A stretch of DNA of 63,194 nucleotides, counting the filler, from Rhabdomonas costata (taxonomy: Eukaryota): assembly GCA_019059605.1 (NCBI GenBank). It is 55 parts of 55 records of this genome, joined end to end, with 100 filler letters (N's around TTAATTAATTAA, not from the genome) between each part and the next. Parts side by side here need not be neighbours in the genome. Positions count along the whole stretch, not along the records: positions 37,981 to 39,031 come from JAHMHO010031327.1; positions 39,132 to 40,182 come from JAHMHO010031328.1; 53 more parts are not named here. One strand, written 5' to 3'. The notes under the pieces were generated by a model. That model worked only from the letters and a program-made list of their open reading frames with translations, ran no database searches and had not been told where the DNA came from. The position numbers and the translations under genes are program-made. This document shows, in pieces, positions 3,942 through 57,327 of the stretch. Position 1 is the first letter of the stretch. The number at the start of each line of letters is the position of its first letter.

Positions 3942-4318
3942 ACACGCACAGCTACTTCAACAAAACGTAAACACTTAAAAAGAATTTCTTGGAGCCAGAA
4001 TCATCATAACACTGGGTGACCAGACACCTGGCCCTTCGGAGGAACAAGGCTAATAAATCTTGCATCAAAGGTCCTCCACATGGAACCGGCGCAAAAAAAG
4101 AAAGATGAGACAATTTTTCTGGAGGCTCGAGGCCATCTCCTCACACTGAGCCCTTGACCAGTTGTGGGGCATGGGCCCCTGCTTCCTCGAGCCTCAGAAT
4201 GTCGGCAACTTCAGAATGTCGAAATCAAAGCGGTGAAATCAAAAGCTGACACTTATATTCATAGAAAAAACGTACGCGAGTAAAAACAGGTGAAATGCGT
4301 GTTTGCTGGGGAGCATGC

Positions 4319-6806: not shown

Positions 6807-7036
6807 NNNNNNNNNNNNNNNNNNNNNNNNNNNNNNNNNNNNNNNNNNNNTTAATTAATTAANNNNNNNNNNNNNNNNNNNNNNNNNNNNNNNNNNNNNN
6901 NNNNNNGTGGGGGGTTTAATTGCAATCTTGGACCACTATTGGTCAATGTGGAGGATGGATGCCCCCTCGTCTGCTGGCGTTTAATTGCAATCTTGGACCA
7001 CTATTGGTCAATGTGGAGGATGGATGCTCAACATAC

Positions 7037-7957
7037 GTCCAGCAGGTCGTTGATCAGGTACAGCAGCGCACTTCCACTGCAGCTGATACAGTGAGTGCAC
7101 TCGCGCTGCTTGGGGTCCAGGGTCGTGGTCTCCAAAAGGATCTGAACGAATATAAAAAAACAGATTTCGAATGAATTCAGAAAACGGACAAAAATGACAA
7201 CCAGCAGACCCCCAAGAGAGATCCTCCAGGTCTTTCGCAGGAATCTCGACGGCGGGGTGCAATTGGGTGGGGTGTGCTCTATGTGAACGAAGGACGTGCT
7301 GCCTCAGGAAGCATAACTTAATCCCCTTGGCGACCTACTTATCCTTATTCGAACACCAAAGAACATTTCCCAATTTTCATCTGTAGTTCTTTTAACTCAT
7401 TTATCGACTTCCCCCCTCTGTCACGAGACGGCACTCTCGGAAGTGCGTTCTTTCCCACCTCGCTTGCGTGAAGGCTGTGCCTATTGTCAGCGGTATGCCC
7501 CTCAATCTCTCAAGCTTCCCAAAATTTCGTGATGCGAAAATTCCACCGAAAAGGCACTTATAAAAGGGTTTAGAGACCCCGAGCAGTTCCGGTTAAGTCA
7601 CTAAAAAGCCCACCATGCTGCATTATTCATTCCATATCTATTTTCCAGAAATCAAAGCTGAATTGGGCGGATCTTGGTTGGGCTCGTCATCTCAATTCCA
7701 AGTCATATGCGTATATCCCGAAAAAAAAAACGAGCACCAGCAGTGACCGGCAACTCCATTCATCCAAACGATTTATCGTTCAGTTCGAGCAGGTTCTGCC
7801 AGTTAATGGGGGAAGCACGATGAAAACATTCCTCGGCCATCCCAATGCACGCCGTAAGCGGCGTCCGCATCTCGTGGCTCACCATCGCAAAGAACATCTC
7901 CTTCGACCGCATCAACTCCCGGGCCTGCTCCTCGCTCCGCTGGATCTCCGCCGCGCG
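7037..7957 (-). CDS. Sensor histidine kinase, HisKA domain; exons 7957-7832 and 7141-7037
   Basis: Spliced translation RAAEIQRSEEQARELMRSKEMFFAMVSHEMRTPLTACIGMAE|ILLETTTLDPKQRECTHCISCSGSALLYLINDLLD, containing the H-box SHEMRTPL and the LINDLLD motif. Missed by the ORF track. Confidence 0.92.
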
Positions 7958-10363: not shown

Positions 10364-10693
10364 GCCCCATTGTGTAACAACATTGACTACAGGGGGAAAG
10401 GGGGGCACGTATGCTTTGCACAGCAACCGCAAAAGTGCCCAAATCGGCTCTTTCCAGCTAAAAAGGCCAAAGTTAGGGGTAAAATGATGGTTTTTAGGCC
10501 AAAATTGATGAAAAAAGAAGCAAAGTACAAGTACACGCGGATGAGTGGGGTGGCGACGACACAAAAAAATTACTTGGGGGTAAGCCTCGTCTTGGGGAGG
10601 GTAAGAGTGGTTCCGGTGACGGAGAAGCAAAAAGATCTTGAATTATTGACCCTTTTTTACTGTGTGATAGGGCATTTTAAAATCGAGCTTTGT
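10364..10693. mobile_element. Terminal segment of an interspersed repeat (putative DNA-transposon end), copy 1
   Basis: Aligns by eye with 17281-17562 (shared AGTGGGGTGG, AAAAAATTACTT.GGGGTAA, TTTTTTACTGTGTGAT.GGGC, AATCGAGCTTTGT). Similarity stops abruptly after AATCGAGCTTTGT in both copies. Confidence 0.75.
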
Positions 10694-10707
10694 CTATTAT
10701 TATTACA

Positions 10708-11363
10708 ATGTGTGGAATTTTTATTTACAATGGTACAATTCATACAATTGAATCATTACAAAAACATTTTAATAAAATACAAAAAAGAGGTCCTGATCAT
10801 TCTAAAATAATGAATGTAGCATCTGATTTAATTTTTGGTTTTCATCGTCTTGCTATTGTTGATATTTCTGACAAAGGAAATCAGCCATTTTTTATAAATG
10901 GTATTTATTTAGTAGCAAATGGAGAAATTTATAATCATCTTGAATTAAAACAAGAAAATGATTTTATTACTTATTCACATAGTGATTGTGAAATTATTAT
11001 TCATATGTATCTTAAATATGGAATCGAATATACAATTAATCAATTAGATGGTGTATTTGCTTTTGCTTTATATGATACATTAACAGATCGAATTTGTGTT
11101 GCTCGAGATCCATATGGTGTAAGACCTTTATTTGTTGGAACTTCTGATAATTTCGAAGTTTTTTACGGCTCAGAGCTAAAAGGCATTAATGATTTGTGTC
11201 AATATGTACGACAATTTAAACCAGGATGCTATACAAATTTTGTAAATGGTACTTTAGAAATAGAAGAAAAACGTTATTATGAATATATATATCCAACTTT
11301 AAAAATAAATGAAGAACAAATTTATTTTAAAATTAATGAACTTTTAACTGCATCTGTAAAAAA
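10708..11363 (+). CDS. asnB: Asparagine synthetase (glutamine-hydrolysing), N-terminal glutaminase domain; intronless, AT-rich, truncated by a fold-back artefact
   Basis: MCGIF start with Ntn Cys2, then RGPD, FHRLAIVD, GNQP, NGEIYNH, SDCE, LDGVFAF and ARDPYGVRPLF motifs. GC is roughly 25-30%. 11356-11415 is the reverse complement of 11107-11166. Confidence 0.95.
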
Positions 11364-13081
11364 CTTCGAAATTATCAGAAGTTCCAACAAATAAAGGTCT
11401 GACACCATATGGATCNNNNNNNNNNNNNNNNNNNNNNNNNNNNNNNNNNNNNNNNNNNNTTAATTAATTAANNNNNNNNNNNNNNNNNNNNNNNNNNNNN
11501 NNNNNNNNNNNNNNNTGTTTGGAAATTGATATTCAGCAATGCTGAATATCAATTTCCAAACAAGAAGGAGGCCGAAGGACCAAGGAAAAAAGCACACGGT
11601 GAACTGAAGCAACAATGTGCACACACACACACGACACCTGGGGACCTTCTCGCGCTTTCCCAATCCCTCCCTCACTGTACATCCCGCGATTGAGCGTGCT
11701 CCCTCCCATATACAGCGGCCCCAGGCGATAAAGCAACGCATAAAATCTGATTCTAAAAGAGAAAAAGAGAGAGAGCGCGCAAGCAGCTGACGAGAAGGTA
11801 GGGAGGCACGCAGAATTCCAGTGAAAGCAGGCTTCGCCGGATTACAAAGGGCAGGACATCAAAAGCGGACGAATCGAGAGAGCGAGAGGCACGGAGAGTT
11901 GACAGACATGTGGGCAGAAAGAAGTGAAAGAAACCACGAAGCAGCACGGCTCAAGGCACAACGGAGAGGCGCACTGCAGCCAGGCAAGCCCCACCGAAGA
12001 CAAGGGATGCGGGGGAAGGAGGGCACAGGGTACACCCAATTTCTCACGCGCTGAACTCCTCCCACTCTCTCTGTCTGTGAAATCTTTGAACGCCTGACGC
12101 TGGGTGATGACAGAGAAGGGAGGCAAGCGGAGCGAATGTAGGCGTAGAGCAGAAAGCACACGTGGAGGGCAGAGGACAACGTGAATGGGGTGCCGACAGA
12201 AAAAAGCCCTCCACGTATGGAGCACGACACTGTACAGACAGGACAATTAAAAAACTGGTCGGCAGGGACTCTGGAAGCAAGTGGCTGGCACAAAGCATCG
12301 TAGATGACGAATCGACTTATTCATGAGGCCACGTCAGCGCAAATCAGAGGAGCTCATATGATTAAAGGGATCAGAAGAACCAAATCAATAAAAAAAAGCT
12401 CCTCAAACAATGCGCACGGCGTTGCCCTCAAACAATCCTCAAACAATGCCCACAAAGGCGTCCTCCGTGAAGCCCAACCTTAGGGCTGGCTCCCCGCCCC
12501 ACACCACCGCCCCGTTAACTGCAAAAGCCACGGTGCCCCCCGTGGGGTCGTTAGGGTCACTGCGGTNNNNNNNNNNNNNNNNNNNNNNNNNNNNNNNNNN
12601 NNNNNNNNNNTTAATTAATTAANNNNNNNNNNNNNNNNNNNNNNNNNNNNNNNNNNNNNNNNNNNNGTTGTGGTTGCGAGTGTTATTATCCATTGTTCAT
12701 TGTATATTACCTCTATCAGAGAAATACCGTATATCTGAGAAATACTCGCATCTCATCGTTTGGTACCATTTCTCGTTGCCTTCCTTTGCCTCTTTTGGTC
12801 CTTTCGTCTATGTTATCGTAAATTTCTCAACGGCGTGCGCAAGAAGATTCAGCATTCCGTGTCATCACCCGTTCCAGGCCGAGAAGACTGAAAGTGGATC
12901 CTACCATTTGGAAATTACACGTGATGTGGATTGAGAGCGGAGCAGTGAAGATCGGCCTCGTTGGAACCCTTCAGCACCACAAGTAAAAGAAACTTGTAGG
13001 ACTCCTCTGCTTGTCACACGGGCAGGGGTTTGTTTTTGTGGGAAGGGAGCTGTCGTCTCTGAATGGAGAGAACAGGAGAAC

Positions 13082-13107: not shown

Positions 13108-15160
13108 CGTAAGTCACTGTGTAGGCCACAAGCAGCATGGGGCTGGATGCTTTGTTGTTTGCCTTTGAAAAAGGAATGCGAATAATGCCAAACAATGTGA
13201 CCGCCAAAGAAGCGGTAGGTGCTAGGTCACTGGAGAGGGCTTGCTTGAAATTTCTTTCGCTTGGGGGCGCTGTTTGTGATGATTTTCACTCTTTTCTCAG
13301 GAGAACCCGGGGTCTCTTAGCTGAGGTGGTGAAGTGTGGAGTTCCAGTGTCCATGATGATCTCTCACTGTTTGGTAATCATATCAATTTTTCCGTGCCCT
13401 GCTTCTTGCATGTCGATTTTCTTTCCTGTCTTTTCCTTCTGCATGTTGGCTCCCCCACTGCCTGTTTTTCGCATGTGTGCATGGGGTTGTTCGGCCCTTC
13501 ACCTCGCTATGCGCTGATGTAAATACCATTTGCGGTGTGCTCTTGGTTCCGTATTCTGATTTCAGGGGTTATCAGAGAGGGGCGACGCAGTTGTCGGGAC
13601 GGAGGCGTGTGGGGATTCTTTTGGAGCCAAATGGGCTTTCAATTATTCCTTGAACAAGATGAATCCTCCAAAGTTCCTGGTCGAGGCAGTACAGTGTCAT
13701 GAAACAGACCACAACAANNNNNNNNNNNNNNNNNNNNNNNNNNNNNNNNNNNNNNNNNNNNTTAATTAATTAANNNNNNNNNNNNNNNNNNNNNNNNNNN
13801 NNNNNNNNNNNNNNNNNGGGGTGGGGTAGGGTACTCCACAGCACATGCTAGGATTAGTCAGTAATCGTGATTACTTTTGACGATCAGGTTGGCGTAGGAC
13901 ATCCTAGACCGTCAATGAACGGGTCGGGTACCCTCAGGGCTGCTCATCTCGCTCTGCGAAACCGAGAAGCCACACTGGTAAACCCAGCCTCTAGCTAACC
14001 CAACTCTTCTCCCCCCCTGCAAGACTTAAATGAGTGCCGGATCGCTTGGCGGTTATCAGAAACTGCGCCACCCCCCGCCCACCCGATGATAATTGGACCC
14101 GTTGAGAGTGTTTCGTATTTCATCCTCCGTCCTCCCAAATGGAACCTCCACCGATGTGCTTCTGCTTCCGGAGAAGGTTGGTCTCCAATTCCGCTATACT
14201 CAGATGGACACTAGTGCGTTGCTACTTGCGGCCCTCGTGTGTTCCATCGCGGCCTTGGAGGGTACCACAGATACCGTGCTGATCTGATTGAGCAATTCCT
14301 CATCATAGCAACGGATTCAGTTAGGGTTAGGGACAGCCCGGACGCGTACGCTTCCAAAACACTGCACTTCTGCACTCCTGCACTGCCCTTGTTGTTGTCA
14401 CCTTGTTCTGAATTGAAACGGATAACTGGAGCTTGTCTGCACTGTGTTTGGCGGAACTTCTCTTTCTCATCCGTTTGTTCAGCAGCGGCTCATCTCATCC
14501 ATCCCGTTTGTCTCACTTCCTTTCAGTTGTTTGAATTGTGGTTGCGGTTCGGATGGGATGCGGTGCGGGGAATAGATATTACGGCATGCTCAGTGGAGGG
14601 GCAGGGCTGGTGGTTGGCCGGCCCAGCGAGACCACCCACATGGCTCTGTGGCTGGTGCTGCTCAACGGCGTGGTGGTGCTCACGCTGACCCTTGAGCTGC
14701 TGCTTCAGGTCAGAGATGGAGCCATTCCCCCCCCCCTTTTTTTCCAGTTTCCCATCCCCGCGGCCTTGGTGACTGCTCTCTTTGCTCCCACGCAGTGCTG
14801 CGATATAGCAAAGAAAGCTTTACTTCTCCTGGAAGACCAAACTTATCCCACCAAGTTGCCTAACAACCNNNNNNNNNNNNNNNNNNNNNNNNNNNNNNNN
14901 NNNNNNNNNNNNTTAATTAATTAANNNNNNNNNNNNNNNNNNNNNNNNNNNNNNNNNNNNNNNNNNNNTTTGTGTGGTGGCGCTGCTCCGGCCGAGGCCA
15001 CACTGGGAACCTCCCGTGCTGCGGGGAGTCTCTATGTTCTGATTGCAGAGGGAGTTTGCACGCAAACAAGAGCAACGCAAGCCGCAGCCGGGCTGGGGGT
15101 GGGGGACTCGCCACCAATGGACCGCCACCAAAATTCTTCAGCAACAGAACGCACACGTAC

Positions 15161-15791
15161 CAGTCCATGTCTTGTGTTGTTCAGCCAGCTTCCGTCATAC
15201 TTGGCCCCACTCTTCCAGGTGTATGTGCCCTGAGGAACAGGGACAACAAACGCACCAAAATGAAATGCGTTCCATCTGCAACAGCGCACGATTTAGGGTA
15301 AACAAACACGGGGAAAAGCGCACCGCGCCGCTGCGCTGACCCTCCACACATTCTCCGACATACACACTTCCGGACTTCAGGAAGACCACGGTGGCCTGAG
15401 CAGAAGGAAAGGAAGACTCAGTCATCCTGGCCTCGGCCCCAGCATAAGCCTGCAAAAGAAAATCTGGGATACCTGGCCCGTTCGTGAGCCATCCTTGAAC
15501 TCACCTTCGTAAGTAAAGTCATCAGTGATGAACTTACCCTGGAGAAAAATTGTGGTGCACGCTTTCTTCGCAAGTACGCACGCCAGATGAATTTCTGCCA
15601 AAAGCACGGCAAGTTACCAAAACCGAAATCAACGGTTTTTCAACCGCTGACAAGATTCACTATGTACATCAGTCTTTCCATCAAAGTATTAGTAGCAGCA
15701 GCAGCAGCACAGTCCGCCGCACCTGCCCACACATCTTGTCATCTTTCCACTCTCCCTCATAGACGGCCCCGTCCGCAAATTTGCAAGATCC
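15161..15791 (-). CDS. MORN-repeat protein; exons 15791-15723, 15538-15473, 15395-15324, 15229-15161
   Basis: GSCKFADGAVYEGEWKDDKMCGQ | GKFITDDFTYEGEFKDGSRTGQ | ATVVFLKSGSVYVGECVEGQRSGA | GTYTWKSGAKYDGSWLNNTRHGL. All introns are phase-0 GT-AG. Confidence 0.92.
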
Positions 15792-21772: not shown

Positions 21773-21984
21773 NNNNNNNNNNNNNNNNNNNNNNNNNNNN
21801 NNNNNNNNNNNNNNNNTTAATTAATTAANNNNNNNNNNNNNNNNNNNNNNNNNNNNNNNNNNNNNNNNNNNNGGTGTGGGGGGTTGGGAAGACAAAAGTG
21901 GAGGTGCCCCGATTGGGATAAAAACCTAGAAATCCTTGCAGTTTTCTTCCAATTCCCTATGAGCGCATTCTCTCCTTCTCTTTC

Positions 21985-24074: not shown

Positions 24075-27000
24075 NNNNNNNNNNNNNNNNNNNNNNNNNN
24101 NNNNNNNNNNNNNNNNNNTTAATTAATTAANNNNNNNNNNNNNNNNNNNNNNNNNNNNNNNNNNNNNNNNNNNNGTTGTTGGGGCCAAATCGAGTGCGGA
24201 CTCTGGCCGGGCAATGTTGTTGGAATTTTGACCATTTTTTTTGTCCTAGGCAAGAGCGCGTATACGTTCATCCGCACCTGTGCATTGATGGCGAAGCTCT
24301 TTGGGGTCGTTCATAATTTGTAGCGTTTCGTCGGTCGCAGCCCCCCTCGAAGAGGTTGCTGCTCTGCCGCGCAGGTGATGGTAGTCCACTCGTTCGACAT
24401 GTTTGTCCGTATAGATACGGACCGGTTCCCTGACTTTGCGGAAGGAATGAGGCGAAGGGTGGCAATGGAGAAGCTCAGCCTCGGGGACGTTGCAGAGGTC
24501 ATCGTCCTATCTCGGTGTGTGCACGAAAACATCCGCTCTGTTTGCGGCATGTCTTGAATCATTGTAGCTTCAGCTGATACTCTCAATAGGGAGCTCACCT
24601 TTCGCATACAATGGCACATTGTATGCACTGTGCACCGAGCGCAAGTTGGACGCGGAATAAATCTCCTCCGGGGGCTGTGCAGAGCGATTACCCAGGCACC
24701 AGGTGGAATCCATGCTTCATGAAACCTTACCCAAAATTCGGACCGTTCGAATCAAAGTTTTTCGCCCGCTGAATGATTGATTTCCTCACTGATGTTACAT
24801 ACATGTTGTTCAAATATAGGAACAAACAAACTTTATGCATAAATCTTATAACGAGGGCCCCTTCCCGCTACACTCCCGTCAGCCTCCCAACAATGTTGCT
24901 CTGCGCTTTTTCGCCAAGTCGGAATTAGGTGCAGTTTCTTTCTGCTTTTTAAGGAAAAAAGTCACAGACACCAGCCAACTTCAAGAGAGCATCAGGACGG
25001 CTCACCCGGAAAGCCTTTGTCCCTGCCAGTCTAAGAAATAATTTCCGACTGAGTGGCGAGGATGATGTCAAGATTCACTTGACCCCCCGGTCGGGTTCCG
25101 CTGTCACAGCTCCTGCGGTAGCACCAACGCCTCCCAGGGCGCCGCCGCTGCGGTGGAACGTGGGGGGCGAAGCATCATGCGATTCGTGGAGTGTCTTCCC
25201 TCGGAGCACAGATACCCCACCCCCCNNNNNNNNNNNNNNNNNNNNNNNNNNNNNNNNNNNNNNNNNNNNTTAATTAATTAANNNNNNNNNNNNNNNNNNN
25301 NNNNNNNNNNNNNNNNNNNNNNNNNGTGTTTGTGTTGCGAAAAAAACCACAAGGCTAGCCTAGTTCTTAGACGGAATTCGCGAAAAAAATGTGTTGAATG
25401 GCCCCGGGTCAGCACCCAAAAGAAGAAAACAAAGCGAAGACATACAGCATGTACAAAAGCTTCTTGGCTGTGGTTTTCTTTGCATTTTGATTGCGCGTTC
25501 GACCTCTGTTCAGGAGAGAGTAATTCAACCATTGCAGTAAGGGACAGGGGCAGCGAATGCTTCTTTTCCTTCTGGCCCTGGGAGTTCGCTCTGAAGGTCC
25601 CATGACCCTTCGCGATTCAGATACCACTGGAAAAGTCTCAAATACCACCGGAAACGTCAGAAATGTCAGATGCGGGCTTGGCAGGGTTCGCAGTGCGCTC
25701 ATCCTTCTCAGGAGCATCAAAGAGACGCAGTACAAAGTCGGCAACGGCAAGTACCGAAAGCCTTTTCAGGACCCAAGCGGTGTTCTGGAATTTAAAGCGA
25801 AGGTATTGCCAGCTGGGCACCGCAGTCCAAAAGGAATGGAGGGCCATCTTTCAAAGCGAAGAAATATCCAAACAAAAACCCTAAAGCAGCGGGAAAACGC
25901 ATGGTAATTGGGATTGTGTACGCTGTTTCGCTGCGTTATCAAGGTGTGCAACGGAAAGAGATCCCCCCCCCACCTTTCTGCAGTATGTCATTGGTTTCGA
26001 GTTTCCACACACGCAAGCGCGCGCTGAGACAACAAAACAACAAACCTGCACATGACGGCAACAGTGAAGAACGTCAGGCGCAGTCGATTTCTGTCCCCGG
26101 TCCACACCAAAAACACCGTTTATCGTTTAAGGACCCCACAATATGGAGTCGAAATTGCACGATTCTCCCAGCTGCGCAACGTATGGTGTCTGGACTGCTG
26201 GACTGTCCATTCATAAGGAAAGCGAGAGCTGGATGCTGGGAGACTGGAAGGGAAACCTCCTCAATAATTCACCCCATTCCTCGTTCAGAACTGCGATGCT
26301 TCCGCGCGTTCGAAAAAGAGACTACACAAGACCAATCAGATTCCAAGCTCCCTCAGAGACACCACACCCAACACANNNNNNNNNNNNNNNNNNNNNNNNN
26401 NNNNNNNNNNNNNNNNNNNTTAATTAATTAANNNNNNNNNNNNNNNNNNNNNNNNNNNNNNNNNNNNNNNNNNNNGTTGGGGGTGGGGAGCGAACGCAGG
26501 TATGTGTTTGGTTGCGTGCAGAATCGAAGGGTGCTTGAGCAATAATTCTGCACGCAACCAAACACATACCTGCGTTCGCTCCCCACGTCTAATCCCAGAG
26601 GATAAAACTCAGCAAGAAAACCCCATCCCAAACCTCTTTGGGGGCTTCCCACAGGAGCTCCGGAGCAAGGAGGCTGGGCTTCAATTGTCATCACAGGATT
26701 CTCGTTCAATGCGGGAGAAATTGTGTGCTGTTGCTCTAAACCTGGAAGCAGGCCAGCAATAACCTGCAAGAGAGAAGTGGAAGGAAAGGAAATAGGGAAA
26801 TAGGGATGCGAATACCGAATACCGAATACCGTTTAGTGAGTTATTACCAAAACAATTCACATCGATAACCACTGACGCTGAAAAGGCCAACCCAGGAAAA
26901 TTTCCTGCAAAAATAATCATTGACGTGATCAACCTAGAGAAAGACAATAATACACAGAAACACAATAACGTGCTTTCGATGCATGTCTCCATTGTCTCGA

Positions 27001-29400: not shown

Positions 29401-29659
29401 CGCGCGGAAGCGACGCAGCTCGTCAGTTCCACGGCAGGGCTGCTACAGATCGAAGTCTGCCCCCCGCCCCACCCACACACGACTCAAGCGGGAAAACCAA
29501 ATAAGCAATCAAACCGTAAGCTGACGGCTGAGTCTTACAATTCAGACAGAAGGGAATATCCAAAATCATCTAGTGTCCCACTATGAAAGACAATGCTCAG
29601 CGAGGTTCATAAAAAGTCTTGCACCAGGCCTGTCAAGAGCAAAATGAAAACGCTGATGC

Positions 29660-29829
29660 CTCCGAGGGCGACGCCGTGAGCTCCCCATCGGGTTCACTCG
29701 CAGTGCAGGCCAGCCTCTGCAGCACCGCGTCAGGGACGTACTTCTTCACCTCCGAGAGAATCGTGATGATCTGGATGAAGGCCTGCTGGATCCGGTTGGG
29801 GTTGGGCTGGGTCTTCAGGTAACCCACCC
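29660..29829 (-). CDS. Exon resembling the HAMP/helical linker preceding class III adenylate/guanylate cyclase domains
   Basis: IQQAFIQIITILSEVKKYVPDAVL resembles the iq.aF..m...L.e.k.ylP..vl linker of protist receptor cyclases. Probable GC donor at 29658-29659. Confidence 0.45.
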
Positions 29830-34559: not shown

Positions 34560-35453
34560 ACCTTTTCCCTCTGTTTTCGGTGTGTACTCCGTCCGACTCA
34601 CACCTGGTGAGTTGGCTGAAACGGAAATTGACGGCAAGTTTGAACCGACTTCGTCGACACAGTTTTGGTGGCAGGAATACCATATGCGTTCCCCTTTTAC
34701 ATTCCGCCCCGACTGAATGCAGTACCACCCAGGACTTTGCCCGCATCCTCGATGTGGTGCGGGCGTCCTCCCAGTCGTCGGACTTGTCCTTATTAAGAAC
34801 GAGGCTCTTCATCACCGCGTGAAACCCAAGGAGTTCGTCTTCTGTGGGCGAATTCTGGGAGCGAATTTGTCGAATGAGGGGAGGTAAGCGCAGGTTCACT
34901 TTGGGAAGTGGTAACTTTTCCTTTGGCGGGTGGAGGAGTGAGCCCAGGGCACCAGGCAATGCATTGAAGCACGGAGTTGGTTGCGCATATTACGCCCTTT
35001 GGTTTGGGCAGAGGAGGCGGCTTGGGTGCGTCGGTGCTTGGGGGTCTGTTGGAAGGGGGGCTGACGATGTCCAGGTTGTACAGCTCGGACATGGAGCGTT
35101 CTAGCTGGATGGGGGGCTCTGGATCTGGAGCAGCAATGGGCCAGTCGGTAGCCCCTGCCAATCGGAAACAGACCACGTAGATTGCAGGCTGGCCCAAGGC
35201 GGAGACCCCTTCAAGTTCATGAAAACGACCCCAGGCGATCACATCGAAGTGATTTCCTTTTTTGAACTTTGATTGCTCGCGGAGCTTTTCATTGATTTCG
35301 GTTTTGTCCGGCAACTTTGTGCCCGGAATGAGCCAGGGGGTGTACGCAAAGCGAAGTGCTTGACGGCCTCGGAAAACGAACTCGTGGATCTCGCCACCCT
35401 CAGTTCTCATGTGGACGGTAAACTCAGCGAACCCTTGGGGTTGTTTTCGGTCT
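34560..35453 (-). pseudogene. Long exon with a possible OB-fold, Pro-rich linker and USP/C19-peptidase-like Cys box; frameshifted
   Basis: KGVICATNSVLQCIAWCP resembles the tCy.NsvLQcl...P Cys box. The next frame gives WEDA (QqDA-like) and FRFSQLTRCESDG. CAG acceptor at 35454-35455. Confidence 0.4.
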
Positions 35454-36846
35454 CTGCAAAAATGAAACATTGCAGAAAAATTTGAATTTGTGCACTGTTT
35501 CGTTCTGGATTAAAACAACAAAGAATACCCTCTGCAGAAGGGACAAGCTTCGCGGTTGGGCTTGAACTCCGTCGCTCCCTCACANNNNNNNNNNNNNNNN
35601 NNNNNNNNNNNNNNNNNNNNNNNNNNNNTTAATTAATTAANNNNNNNNNNNNNNNNNNNNNNNNNNNNNNNNNNNNNNNNNNNNGGGTTGTGTGGCGAAA
35701 AGATGAAGAAGGCGTGGTCTGGGAGAGAGCAGAAGGGCCTAAAGCAGCGTAAGCGGATGATGAGTGTGGCGCAGTGGCGCATGCTCCCATCGAAGTCCTC
35801 GAAAACAAACTTGCAACCCTCCCCTCCACTTGAGTCTTGAGGGTGACTGACGTAAACAAAATCATCAGATCCGTATCCAATCACTAGATGGAGTGCTTTT
35901 TGCACAGCAGTGCTTCACAAGAATTTTATCCTTGAATGTCGAAAGGATGGCTGTGTTCAATTCTTAATTCGGTTGGACTTGTGCGCGTGTACTTGGAGAC
36001 CCGACACTGGGGACCCCAAAAGGAATGAAAAACAAACCCCCGAAAAATAATTCATAAACGAAAATAATAGTTCATAAATCAGCCCCCATCTGAGGATTGA
36101 CAGGCGTCACAATAAACACAGGTGAATGCCCACTCCGCGTCACCCCCAACCTCTCGCTGACCTCAGGTAAACACGCATGCAAATAAGTGAATGGGAAATT
36201 GTGCAAAGTGTAAGTTAAAATGTGCAACTGAAGGAAGCCGAAGGAATGATCCATAGACTATCCGTCATTTAGATCACAGCCTTCTCCTGCTTCATTTCAA
36301 CCCCCCCCAGGCACACATGCGCAATATAAATTTTCAATTCCGTTTAGCCCCTCTCGGACTGTTGCGTTGAAGTACACCTAACGTTTATTACCGATGACGT
36401 ATTCCTCTATATCCTTTTTTTGTTTTAGGGCCTTCCGCCTTTTAGGTGGCAGAGGGACTTTAGGGTGGTGAGTGGTGAGGACTATCATTGCTTATATTCT
36501 TTTGAAAAGCATATTTGAATCTATTTTTTCTAAATTCTCTCAGTCTCTCGCCATCGGGGTGCTGCTGTATCCTCAGCTTCGTTTTTTTGCCCAGAAACGA
36601 TGTTTATTTTCCGTGACCGATACCATGCTGCCTTCATAAAAGAAATCAAATCACTCTGTTGATCGCTTTAATTTCAACTTGAACTGAATTCCTGCTCACA
36701 GCGGAAAATAAACATCGTTTCTGGGCACAAAAACCNNNNNNNNNNNNNNNNNNNNNNNNNNNNNNNNNNNNNNNNNNNNTTAATTAATTAANNNNNNNNN
36801 NNNNNNNNNNNNNNNNNNNNNNNNNNNNNNNNNNNGGGTGTGGGGT

Positions 36847-38506: not shown

Positions 38507-38966
38507 CTTCAGGCAGGAGCAGAAAGGATGCATCTCTCCGTTCTCCAGTCACCTGGAGGAAGAAAAGAACCATGTCCCAACTGACAAACTCCACATAGAT
38601 ACAGCAGTCATGGTGACTCTCGAACAGCAAAAGCATCTCGCCTTGGAATCGCGGCGCCACAGATGGACCAAGATATACACGATGTACAGCTGCATCGGGG
38701 GCAGAGAATCACAGGGAAAAAGCGATGCCCTCAGATGCTCGCCTGACAACAGATATGAGAACATGCTCGTTTAAACGCCGGGAGAAAACCAAGACTATAA
38801 CCCCTCACTGGGCGCCACTGCCCGAGCGCACGAGCCACTCGTGTGCCGCGTAGTTGAGCAGTGTGGGCTTGTGGGTGGGCACCCAGTGGTCAGACTTCAT
38901 CGCCTTCACTCCGCACATGGGGTCCTGGGCGAGGTCCTGCAGCCACTTATCGGAATGGAACATGAT
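38507..38966 (-). CDS. Three exons (38966-38832, 38689-38642, 38552-38507); possibly the C-terminus of a DUF218/ElyC-like protein
   Basis: ...DHWVPTHKPTLLNYAAHEWL|LYIVYILVHLWRRDSK|VTGERRDASFLLLPE, similar to w.P......alHE.lg...Y. The second intron is GC-AG. Confidence 0.5.
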
Positions 38967-39131
38967 CTGCATCATCCCCCAAAAACACACACACACACAG
39001 ACAGACACCACAAAGCACACACACAAACACANNNNNNNNNNNNNNNNNNNNNNNNNNNNNNNNNNNNNNNNNNNNTTAATTAATTAANNNNNNNNNNNNN
39101 NNNNNNNNNNNNNNNNNNNNNNNNNNNNNNN

Positions 39132-40182
39132 TCGTGTGGCCGCCGGGCTCGCCCCGGCGATCTCGGCCTGCAGAATGGCCCTTAACTCTCGCGGGGAGTA
39201 CGGCTCCCACACCACCACCACAAACCGGCTCAGCAGCGACACGGAGTGCCGGAACCGCTTCCCCGCGTACGCCCCCGCGGAGGGGTTCTGCGCGGCGAAG
39301 AGGCGGAAGTTGGGGTGCCGAGGGATCCGCAGAATGCCGTCGGAGCCCACGAGATACCCGCCCTCGGCAAAGTTCCCAGGGATCTCCAGCACCCCCGTGT
39401 CCATGGCGAGCTCCAAGCACTGCAGCACGGGGTCGGGCACTGCGAGAGAAGAAACGCGATACTAGTTTGAAAACAGAGAATCCTGTGGAAAGACGGAAGA
39501 GAGAAAAATCGAAATTAGTACCCAGATTGAATTCGTCGAGGAAAATCCAGCAGCCGTGCAGGAAGGCAAAGGCGAAGCTTCCCAGGGTGAACACAAAGCG
39601 GGGCTCCCCGTCCTCGGAGGAGACCAGCTCCAGCCGCCCCAGGAAGTCATCATTGGTGAGGCTTGAGGACATTAGAAACCGCTGCAAGGGGGCTCCGAGC
39701 ACTGCCGCGCAGAAGTTCACCAGAGCGGACTTCCCCACTCCTGCACAGCAAGGAAACCACATCCTTTGGAGAGTACACTTCGGAAAGAAATGGGTCTCAA
39801 ATACGGTACAAAGACCACATAGGGACAACAACGACTGGGCACGTTTCCGGATTTCCCAAAAGAAATCACGAAATGTGCATCAGTCCTGTGCCATCAGTCC
39901 TTTCGCTCTTCCCCTCTCAGTTAGAGAGTGAAGGATGAAAGCAAAAGCGGCAGCAGAACCAGCAAAAAACCACAGACAAGCAAACACTACAAAGAAGAGC
40001 AGACACGCAATCTCGCAGAGGGCCTGTCTCGCTAATGATCAGCACAGGGCGGTTGTCCTTGCAGGCCTGCAGTAGGATCTCCACGTGGCGCCACGTGCCT
40101 GGGGTGGAGGGGCTGAGCACAACCCTGAGCCCCTTCGGGACCAGCGCCGAGGTGTCCTCGCGGTACAGGTACCACACCCCCC
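39132..40182 (-). CDS. Midasin/Rea1-like (dynein-related/MoxR) AAA+ ATPase module; exons 40182-40024, 39740-39522, 39439-39132
   Basis: Walker A RPVLIISETG|VGKS, Walker B GCWIFLDEFNL, then HPNFRLFAAQNP and SLLSRF. Confidence 0.88.
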
Positions 40183-49612: not shown

Positions 49613-50540
49613 GCATGTGACGGGCTCACCGATGATATGATCCGGGCCACCATCGAGAACGCCAAGGGCACCCGCTCCGCTTTGTTCGTGCCGGAGCAGT
49701 GCTTTGAGCTGCTCGTGAGGCAGCAGCTGCCGAAGCTCGAGGATCCCTGCCAGCGGTGCGGCGACAAGGTTTTGGACGAGCTGCAGCGGATGTGCAAGTC
49801 GAGCGAGAAGGAGCTGGGACGTTTCCCTAAGCTGCGGTTTCCACCCCCTTCCGTCCCGTCCCGTCCTGTACGTATTCCTGTAATTGCAATTGTGATTTCT
49901 CCGAAACCCTGCCCATTCTCCAAATATCAATGACCAACAGGGCTTCCGCTGATGCCCATCTCGACATTTCCACAGATGGCCATTACGAAATGCACTGTAC
50001 GGTGGCCAGGAAGCAAAGGCTCAAGGAGGGATTCTGCCCACCAGCTTACATAGCAGCGGCTCACTGAAACGGGGTAAGTGTAAAATGCCCTTCCTGGCAC
50101 TGAGCATGAAAGCACGGATTATCGTCTCCATGAAGCAGTAGCAGGTACAGAGTTCTCGGGCGCAATCACAAAAAACAGCAACCAGCGATGTGCCTGGCCA
50201 TGGTCCTTACACATCGGTGCAGGAGGCGGGTTGCCCCTCCCAAGCCAGTCTCACCCCAGATGAGCCAGCGACCCGGTTCGATGTTTGAACCCCGACTCGG
50301 TGGACTAACGCCCGAGGGACGATGCCATCCTCCAAACTACCATTAGAACTTTTCTTCGAACCGAAGTCCCCTTTGCTGCGCCGGAAAGGGCAGGTGATCA
50401 TTATACAGTCCCGCATCAACCTCCTGCCTATTCAGGGACCGCGTTGCGGAGGAGGTCTCTCGCCTGCTGCGCTCCTTCCTGGTCCCCCTGCGGGATTTCG
50501 TGCGCAACCTGGTGCAGATCGAGCTGGCGTACAACACCAC
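49613..50540 (+). CDS. Dynamin-related protein (Vps1/Dnm1-like), middle domain; exons about 49613-49836 and 50436-50540
   Basis: DGLTDDMIRATIENAKGTRSALFVPEQCFELLVRQQLPKLEDPCQRC...RFPKLR|DRVAEEVSRLLRSFLVPLRDFVRNLVQIELAY; GT-AG intron 49837-50435. Confidence 0.92.
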
Positions 50541-54560: not shown

Positions 54561-56625
54561 CTGTGGTCGACATTCGGGTTCCGTTTGTATCCATTGTTCT
54601 TGTTTATGTTGTCTGAAAAAAGTCTCGCTTTTTGTCAACAAGTTAACAAGCTGCAGATGCGGGAAATTGGATGTGCATCCTGATTGCTACCACTTCTTCT
54701 TCACTACGGTGTACGATGCTTCGGCCCCCGTCGCGAGAGCACCCAAAACCACGCCAACTTGCAATCTAGGGTGCCTTTGCGACAAACGCCAAGTACTTGA
54801 TCTCGCAGATAGAAGGTACAGGACGATCCATTATGTCCTCCAGGACAGAGTATTGATAGAGTGCAAGAGTTGGTCTTCCGCTGCAATCTCAAACAAAAAG
54901 TGCCACAAGTGTCCACTAGTCAGTTTCTTGTTTCAACTTTCTCTACGTCACCGTGCTACTGGGAGGGACCTCAGTAAACAACTGGAATGCGTTAATAAGT
55001 TATAAATTCCAATTTTTGAAATTTATGAATCTTACTAACAGGAAAACTTTTCCTCTACCACTCCCAAAGATTGTTCAAACTGACCGCTACGTGAGAGTGA
55101 TCCCCACCCAGGCGCTGCTTCACAACCTGCAACACCCCACNNNNNNNNNNNNNNNNNNNNNNNNNNNNNNNNNNNNNNNNNNNNTTAATTAATTAANNNN
55201 NNNNNNNNNNNNNNNNNNNNNNNNNNNNNNNNNNNNNNNNTGTTGTTCGCTGCGCATTGCGGGAAAAGTTGAACCAGTTTATTTTTGTTGGCACTACTTC
55301 ATCTCCTGCCTAGGTGCTTCACTGGTTGTTGCCCTTTTATCATGAAAAGGCCCCGTTTAGCGTCCAACATTGCATGGGGTGGGGGGGGCGTAAAGGAAGT
55401 TATGCAAAAAAATACTAATCCGTTTATTAGGTCGATTTTTTTTTGGATCCTCTGAACTCACATGACAACAGTGCTCACAGGGTTTCGATCAAGCAGGGGT
55501 GTGTGTGTGTATTGTTTAACAATTTCGATTTTTTCGACTTTCGATTTTGATATGAGTTGGGAGGTTGAGACGCTTCTCCGTTGAGCACCACTGATAGTTA
55601 CCATTGCACCCCGGTCACTTTTTTCCGGTGCAAACAGGTGTCAGGTGCCTCTAAACGCACTTAGGCTTGAGGTTAGACACACACTAAAGGGGTGGGGGTG
55701 GGTGTTTTGACCACCAACCCCCTCTCATACACGATAGCCCTACCCTGACGCGAACTGTGTTAAAACAGCTAATCACGCCCGAGGTGGCAGTGGCTCAAAC
55801 CAAAACAAACATAAGAAGCACACTGCGCATACACAAGTGTGATGGCTGCGGCGAAGGTGCCTCGCAACCATCGCAACCAAGTCACAGTGGAGGAAGAAGA
55901 GCACTGAAGAGGGTACTGCTGTTTCAACAGCCTGCCAGTGCGCTGCAGAAATGTTTTTGACAGGCTGGTGGTGCTACCGCCTTCGGTGGTCAGCGCAGAA
56001 ATCGACATGTATCGAGCATGAGATTTGAACCTTTGATCATTTCAACCTTTTGAACTAACCAAGCATAGCAAAGGTTCCCCCACGCAAACCTCGATAGAAC
56101 GCACTGACGCAGGTCACCCAACTGCTCTGCCGCGGATGCTTGTTTTCCTTGCCACCCTCGTTGTTTGCGAAGGAGTACAGCCATTCTCCTGCGTGGCATA
56201 CCATATCCGTATCTTGGAATTCCACTTCCTTTTGATCTTCCCCAAAAAGACCCTACAATTCAACATCATGCAGTCTGTATGACCCACAAACNNNNNNNNN
56301 NNNNNNNNNNNNNNNNNNNNNNNNNNNNNNNNNNNTTAATTAATTAANNNNNNNNNNNNNNNNNNNNNNNNNNNNNNNNNNNNNNNNNNNNTTGTTTTGG
56401 TACAAGGAAATGTGCTTGTGCACAATGGAATGAGTTTGTTTGGTTTGGGAGTGCCAGTGGCACGGCAGCTTGAGCGGGCTGTGGAGGCCGGGGCGGTGTC
56501 TGGGGTTACAACTACGGAGGTCAGGTTGAAGGTATACCTCAACACTCTCTTATGGAGCGCTGGCGTAATATTGAATTTATCAAAGAATTTGCAAGACAAA
56601 ACTCGCTGAAGGGCAGGCGACATAC

Positions 56626-56885
56626 ATCTCACTGTAGCTCAGCAGGTCGCTCAGGTGCAGGGGATCCTCCTCATGGTCCGTGCCGATCTTCTCAAAGCCT
56701 CCACTGCTCTGCCGCGACGGGCGGGCCAGCATGTAGTCGTCATCACCGCCCATAAACACCAGAGGCCGCTTGTGCATCAGGCGCTCCACGAGGTCATCTG
56801 GCTTCATCGTGCGGTAGAAGGTCTTCTCGTACTCGGAGCCGTGGCTTCGCTTGACCTCCAGGAATTTACTCAACAGCCCCCGGAC
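56626..56885 (-). CDS. Exon of a MavL-like/DUF4804 protein (putative ADP-ribose-binding macro-type fold)
   Basis: FLEVKRSHGSEYEKTFY...RLMHKRPLVFMGGDDDYML...GGFEKIGTDHEEDPLHLSDLLSYSEM matches FL..Kr..Gs..Ek..Y, kRPl.F....D.y.L, gfe.iGt..E..pl.l.d.lSYdEm. Confidence 0.8.
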
Positions 56886-57327
56886 CTTCTCTCTGTGCCC
56901 ACAGAGAGGTAGAAGGAGGAGGGAGGCCACACTTCGGCACCAAATCAATGACACTGGATAACAAAGGTATCGGTTGCTCTGCATACACATCCCTGCCTCA
57001 CAAGCCACACAAAACCGACGAACACGACTCAGTGCCTTATCTGACAAATTGTGACATAATTTATTCACGACAGCCGCTCACGCATGCGATGAAAAGGTCC
57101 GGTTCTGAAGCCGTTTCCTTGGCTTAATTGAAAGAGAGGAGCGAACACTCGAGCACACACACATACACGCACACAGGCCAGACCACACCACACAAAATTC
57201 TACTTCTGCTTCTTTCAGATGTTCAGTTTAAAACAATAGATTTTCTCCACATAGAAACCATACACACCGAACCCAACTGTTCAGCTGGATCCTGAGAAGA
57301 ATATGGATACTCACTCAGCACTGTACG

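Follow-up and report, generated by a model that had tools for sequence, protein, structure and literature searches.

Which features of an intron's 5' end define it as a donor in a genome whose introns appear to start not only with GT, but also with GC and even GA? This question arises from 63,194 nucleotides of Rhabdomonas costata DNA (the window), for which an earlier note named six non-GT donors and proposed a dinoflagellate-like splicing code that reads AG|G at the exon end rather than intron positions +2 to +6. All six are present in the sequence, on the minus strand and each directly after AG (4318, 7831, 21984, 29659, 38641 and 40023), and two of them, 40023 and 7831, could be anchored by homology. 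We consider it likely that the two anchored introns, one GC-AG and one GA-AG, are ordinary U2-type introns, and that position +2 of the donor can also be C, or rarely A, with a non-GT share of about 7% and perhaps up to 15%.

The window is made up of 55 unlinked pieces of 1045-1056 nt each, separated by 100-nt linkers that consist of N plus stop codons in all frames. The introns 38641-38553 and 40023-39741 lie on separate, unlinked contigs, and a single gene across 38553-40023, which these two introns would bound, was rejected. A phmmer search with one exon of the midasin-like gene described below (exon C) against 1.84 billion representatives gave 570 matches, the best of which, P0007 (E 4.6e-28), is filed as a Euglena gracilis transcript and was the sole named entry among five looked up, 150 matches being listed. 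With Euglena gracilis and Rhabdomonas costata as the sources of the closest named proteins, the host lineage is, by sequence affinity, euglenid. The expectation that the host would prove not to be a dinoflagellate was therefore borne out, and a dinoflagellate host is ruled out by these euglenid proteins. Most pieces have a G/T-rich start and a C/A-rich end, with similar loose ends in DNA-like sequencing runs, a composition that we take to be like that of random-primer genome amplification.

The GC donor at 40023 lies in a midasin-like AAA gene on the minus strand. Exon A (40024..40182), cut by the contig end, stops in the first half of Walker A and was found by tblastn with residues 556-584 of E. 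gracilis P0007 (59%). Exon B (39522..39740) carries the rest of Walker A up to Walker B (Pfam AAA_5, 6.2e-05; tblastn with P0007), and exon C (39132..39439), which has P0007 as its best phmmer match, is again cut by the contig end. Between A and B lies an intron of 283 nt in phase 1 with the donor cag|GCCCTC (39741..40023), and between B and C a GT-AG intron of 82 nt with the donor tgg|GTACTA (39440..39521; 32/50 residues identical to P0007 in an ungapped alignment). After splicing, 227 codons form one open frame, which aligns with P0007 without gaps over both junctions; around the junction in Walker A, 36 of 60 residues are identical. Among 275 in-frame G?-AG splice pairs, 40023-39741 scored highest (278), and a GT donor was rejected for this intron, the best GT pair (256) being 22 alignment points worse. 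A 4-nt repeat at both junctions permits five equivalent registers, all of which yield identical mRNA; only one has G...AG ends, and it was chosen by consensus. On sequence grounds, this intron is GC-AG, and the P0007 alignment together with the best splice-pair score confirms that it splits Walker A and starts with GCCCTC, as had been noticed before. Its donor has no G at +5, and its match to the consensus is confined to the exonic CAG|G. Recognition by AG|G alone has its single good argument in this donor, which lacks an intronic consensus.

The GA donor at 7831 interrupts a histidine kinase gene on the minus strand. The first HisKA exon (7832..7957; Pfam HisKA, 1e-08) ends in AG and is 83-86% identical to two EukProt proteins, one of which is a Rhabdomonas costata entry. 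It is followed by a GA-AG intron of 690 nt in phase 0 with the donor gag|GAATGT (7142..7831) and by a second exon (7037..7141; Pfam HisKA positions 26-59), after which comes a GT donor, gac|GTATGT, at 7036. Both exons together are identical to the proteins P0004, P0005 and P0158 at 58-59 of 64 residues, and R. costata mRNA-derived proteins have a junction identical to that of the window. The GA pair 7831-7142 ranks first among 303 splice pairs with a score of 329; the best GT pair reached 271, and a GT donor, 58 alignment points worse, was rejected here as well. The kinase donor keeps the exonic AG, A at +3, G at +5 and T at +6, and a junction repeat gives the intron three equivalent registers.

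Sequencing runs also bear on this intron. Four runs (X1-X4), all from one sample, were aligned to the kinase piece only: X1-X3 cover the intron, whereas X4 covers exon sequence alone (5/30 bins), and this exon-only cover suggests that X4 is RNA. X4 joins 7141 to 7832 and skips 690 nt with the ends CT..TC, corresponding to GA..AG on the minus strand. The contig that spans the joint is a single one with 20 letters on its short side, and since 2 of its 29 exon-2 letters differ from the window, it probably comes from a paralog of the window copy. Every RNA-like contig over both exons shows some difference from the window copy, and the kinase family has many near-identical copies. One could hence suppose that GC donors are real while the GA donor is non-functional, either in a decayed or unspliced kinase paralog or through an A introduced by genome amplification; GAATGT is, after all, one letter away from GTATGT, the next donor in the same gene. 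We hold this to be decidedly unlikely. In X1 and X3, contigs that run across the GA donor show no other letter there, so that GA at 7831 is not a lone base-call error, and at a loose end of X3 (7820) a second version of the sequence has the first 12 intron letters in common with the window, GA donor included, before it diverges. Both exons are open, and overlapping X4 contigs match the first of them exactly over 7832-7906. In the published R. costata intron tables (PMC8219788), GA-AG is about twice as frequent as other one-mismatch classes; none of the five GA-AG rows of Table S5 returns in Table S6, which is itself a table for nonconventional introns. A deep X3 contig also skips 548 nt inside the intron (7144-7693), as further paralogs or alleles might.

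The paralogs of the kinase form a small series at this intron position. Unspliced paralog gene calls read through the donor as Val-Cys (P0001-P0003) or Ala-Cys (P0006), where the window has Glu-Cys. Judging from these residues, the donor codon would be GTN in three paralogs, GCN in one and GAA in the window, each followed by TGY, and the paralog residues after these codons are unrelated. Over five copies, position +2 varies (T, C, A) and TGY at +4 to +6 is kept. Loose contig ends of X1 and X2 start right after +5 or +6, consistent with paralog divergence at this point. The position of the kinase intron is established by the X4 joint, the splice-pair score and the protein junctions, and splicing at the GA donor of the window copy itself is likely.

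Euglenids also possess nonconventional introns, with the signature 5'-N3CDG ... CHG-N5-6|R (as given in PMC12501133), and the 5'/3' base pairing of these introns had been proposed for examination in the non-GT introns. The midasin-like and kinase introns could in principle be structure-guided nonconventional or intermediate introns in a shifted register, their GC-AG and GA-AG ends being a coincidence of the short junction repeats that permit five and three registers, respectively. Nonconventional and intermediate introns, as described in PMC12501133 and PMC4770533, do share with the anchored introns the non-GT starts, the short junction repeats and the host group, and all seven R. costata nonconventional candidates, as drawn in PMC8219788 Table S6, start with GC too. 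GC starts thus occur in both R. costata intron types, and it is the 3' end that tells them apart: in the published candidates, which have long terminal stems, the last letter is C or T, and the end is not AG. The 5' N3CDG motif was absent from all 12 equivalent registers of the three non-GT introns inspected (midasin 5, kinase 3, 38641 4). The 3' half-signature, CHG-N5-6 followed by an exonic purine, fits two of the five midasin registers, but none of the three kinase and four 38641 registers. Duplexes between the intron ends were no better than shuffles in any of the three (z 0.49, -0.52 and 1.00), and whole-intron folds gave no stem joining the ends. Expected pairs between the ends were 0.00 for midasin, 0.77 for kinase and 1.34 for 38641, compared with 1.97 in a GT control. 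A 10+7+10 end-fold gave 0 to -4.1 kcal/mol depending on register, with -2 to -4 kcal/mol in some registers, and 0 in a GT control; these values correspond to the weak edge of the nonconventional range reported in PMC11170887 and point slightly toward nonconventional introns, but do not discriminate. The proposed pairing thus found no support, with the 5' motif absent and no stable terminal stem. Both anchored introns have G at +1, an AG 3' end, and a pyrimidine tract with a CAG acceptor (11 and 13 pyrimidines among the 17 letters before the acceptor in midasin and kinase, 15 in 38641; 14 and 13 in GT controls), and paralogs have GT at the kinase position. The anchored introns therefore differ from nonconventional introns in lacking N3CDG and the terminal stem and in having an AG end with a pyrimidine tract (compare PMC12501133 and PMC4770533), and we regard a nonconventional origin as very improbable.

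The four remaining candidates, all on the minus strand, are drawn from the letters of the window alone. One is a candidate GC-AG intron of 89 nt (38553..38641; donor aag|GCGAGA) with a strong acceptor, 15 pyrimidines in a tract of 17, for which GT-only chains exist as alternatives, for example 38831 to 38553, with one frame open straight through; homology searches with the exon upstream of 38641 returned no homolog, only unnamed clusters. The open frame of the candidate GC donor tag|GCATGC (4311..4318) also contains five GT sites. Family searches with its exon, including Pfam, gave no family match, and we presume a resemblance to polycystin-type channels. For the candidate GA donor cag|GAAAGA (21977..21984), the same open frame offers two GT donors and remains open up to the contig end, passing tag|GTTTTT at 21925, and for the candidate GC donor gag|GCATCA (29652..29659) it offers GT sites at 29697, 29672 and 29651. 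AG|GC or AG|GA occurs in 807 of 3744 30-nt bins of the window (22%), and picking one where an exon is expected to end is therefore partly circular. Hence 40023 and 7831 stand as donors, while 38641, 4318, 21984 and 29659 are unanchored and have GT alternatives; equally, the rule that every non-GT donor follows an exonic AG holds for both anchored donors and extends to the other four as unanchored cases.

The consensus of the GT donors bears on whether AG|G is sufficient. In 23 GT donors, 16 of them unanchored picks, -1 is G in 20 and AG precedes the intron in 11, while +5 is G in 13, as against 26% of 6473 background GT sites (P = 0.002). AG is enriched before non-GT donors when all six are compared with these GT donors (6/6 vs 11/23, Fisher P = 0.028); with the anchored donors only (2/2) the P value is 0.48, and for this reason the enrichment is not counted as evidence. 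The looseness of GT donors described before is real: a dynamin middle domain on the plus strand (49619-50540; Pfam 3.5e-20) contains a 599-nt GT-AG intron whose donor, GTTTCC, is without consensus beyond G|GT. Recognition independent of +2 to +6, in contrast, found no support, as +5 G is enriched in GT donors and TGY is kept in the five kinase copies. Both the exon end and +5 contribute, and only +2 and +3 look free. A MORN-repeat gene on the minus strand (15160-15790) adds four short exons with one repeat per exon and four GT donors.

How common are non-GT donors? They account for 2 of 9 homology-anchored donors in the window, 2 of 25 when 16 unanchored GT donors are added, which were picked by eye and are circular toward GT in the same way as the earlier picks were toward non-GT, and 6 of 29 with all of the earlier guesses. 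In R. costata, Table S2 of PMC8219788 holds 11,418 Exonerate rows in both orientations, with 9461 GT-AG, 634 GC-AG and 90 GA-AG, and non-GT donors make up 724 of its 10,185 G-AG rows, about 7% (GC 6.2%, GA 0.9%); this table is raw Exonerate output, not deduplicated and probably GT-biased, with a noisy background of CA-AG, TT-AG and GG-AG. Hits in Tables S2, S3 and S5 together comprise 185 GA-AG, 122 CA-AG, 92 TT-AG, 91 GG-AG, 86 CC-AG, 82 AT-AG and 82 CG-AG, with six further classes at 18 or fewer, so that GA-AG leads the 13 other X-AG classes in the count, CT-AG being left out for its palindromic code (PMC8219788). GA-AG also appears in 5 of the 26 read-supported, annotated cases of Table S5, but in none of the seven of Table S6, and the complete R. 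costata introns checked by hand in the same paper are GT/AG in 29 of 29 cases. In E. gracilis, GC-AG was counted 659 times vs 11,527 GT-AG (PMC11170887). Tested against 7.1%, the ratio of 6/23 derived from the earlier guesses is significantly higher (P = 0.005), whereas 2/9 (P = 0.13) and 2/25 (P = 0.54) are not; the excess is due to the unanchored guesses. A non-GT rate near 26%, as first estimated, thus rests on four such guesses and compares with about 7% in the transcript mapping published for R. costata. Because non-GT donors may be under-represented in the published table, their true share could exceed 7%, and the Wilson interval of 2/9 (6-55%) is compatible with a high share. The most likely picture is one in which about 7% of donors, and perhaps as many as 15%, depart from GT.

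These numbers also weigh on the proposal of a relaxed code like that of dinoflagellates, under which AG|G would suffice to define the donor, at least a fifth of donors would be GC or GA, and the published 7% would be an undercount by GT-biased aligners. Such undercounts do occur, as aligners missed the GA and GG donors of Eurytemora (PMC5714493), and the two non-GT cases among nine anchored donors, the bare GCCCTC of midasin, the prevalence of G at -1 and of AG in GT donors, and the three dinucleotides at one kinase-family intron position would all suit it. We nevertheless judge it quite unlikely, because the R. costata rows and the 29 hand-checked introns of PMC8219788 speak for a low share, +5 G enrichment and the retained TGY of the kinase paralogs speak for a contribution of the intron, and four of the six original cases are unanchored in a sequence where 22% of random 30-nt bins offer AG|GC or AG|GA.

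If the introns are instead of the ordinary U2 type, as we favour, the major spliceosome would remove both anchored ones. U1 pairs with positions -3 to +6 of the donor, the end of the exon is held by U5 loop I, and the U6 ACAGA box reads +4 to +6; a mismatch at +2 is bearable if the flanks are good. The pairing with U1 that is lost at +2 could be offset by the exonic AG through its contacts to U1 and U5 loop I, and usually further by +4 and +5, read by U1 and then by the U6 ACAGA box. An Rfam search of the window gave 0 matches, with U1, U5 and U6 not among them. The midasin donor GCCCTC would lean almost wholly on its exonic CAG. GC and GA donors would arise by a point change in an existing GT donor, as seems to have happened in the kinase family. 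A more radical variant, in which +2 has become nearly free in this heterotrophic euglenid independently of other lineages through changes in U1, U5, U6 or U1C, and GT-biased aligners hide a true non-GT share of 15-25%, appears unlikely to us. If it holds, no earlier system of this sort would have been described from Euglenozoa, where it would exist alongside a trans-splicing spliceosome and the separate nonconventional pathway.

Comparison with known systems places the anchored introns among a known kind. GC-AG is a listed intron class in euglenids (PMC11170887), and conventional euglenid GC-AG introns, as tabulated in PMC11170887 and in Table S2 of PMC8219788, have the same GC donor, AG acceptor and pyrimidine tract and form 5-6% of the conventional introns there. 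In E. gracilis GC donors, only G at +5 stands out in the data of PMC11170887, whereas the midasin donor is without even this letter. The kinase intron has the same boundary class as the GA-AG calls in Tables S2, S3 and S5 of PMC8219788; the sections of that paper used here do not discuss GA-AG as a class, nor do they describe a GT/GC/GA series at one intron position. A literature search by title and start of abstract, with most subscription papers outside its scope, found none on euglenid GA-AG introns as a topic, and the term has 0 occurrences in the text of two euglenozoan papers. In our reading, GC-AG introns are real and GA-AG introns probably real spliceosomal introns, of a known kind whose calls are already tabulated in this lineage.

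Outside the euglenids, the GA donors of Eurytemora and Oikopleura are reported to require an exonic AG in front of them (PMC5714493, PMC7072748). The GA/GG introns of Eurytemora affinis and the GA-AG introns of Oikopleura dioica have the exonic AG, A at +3 and a normal acceptor in common with the kinase intron, the one anchored case here. However, according to these reports they reach 10-12% of sampled introns and seem to be recent gains, whereas GA amounts to about 1% here, at a position held in common with GT paralogs. The dinoflagellate Amphidinium carterae uses the same GT, GC and GA donors with AG acceptors (PMC12584245), but dinoflagellates belong to Alveolata and the host to Euglenozoa, and there is no sign here of GC and GA as routine classes with a high share. 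Should the non-GT share prove high, relaxed donor recognition would have one more independent origin, beside those in dinoflagellates, Eurytemora and Oikopleura. Gene finders and aligners limited to GT and GC will produce wrong models for some euglenid genes, and GA-AG introns are grouped with the nonconventional ones though they look spliceosomal. The GT, GC and GA paralogs at one intron position amount to a small natural mutagenesis series for the compensation of a lost T at +2.

The window, whose candidate exons were listed with a codon-bias scan, contains several further sequences. An intronless asparagine synthetase-like open reading frame on the plus strand (10681-11394; 32% GC; Pfam GATase_7, 3e-29) adjoins host-like sequence and is either foreign, perhaps viral, or an amplification chimera. 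On the minus strand, an exon with a Pfam match to MavL-like ADP-ribosylhydrolase (56613-56891; 1.5e-21) has intron boundaries on both sides, and an open frame of 238 codons (34796-35509), for which a Pfam search gave no match, may belong to a retroelement. Two pieces have a perfect direct repeat close to each of their ends, one of 127 nt (23024-23150/23948-24074) and one of 115 nt (36847-36961/37740-37854), and a perfect inverted repeat of 42 nt occurs at 26483-26586; all three are likely artefacts of assembly or amplification.
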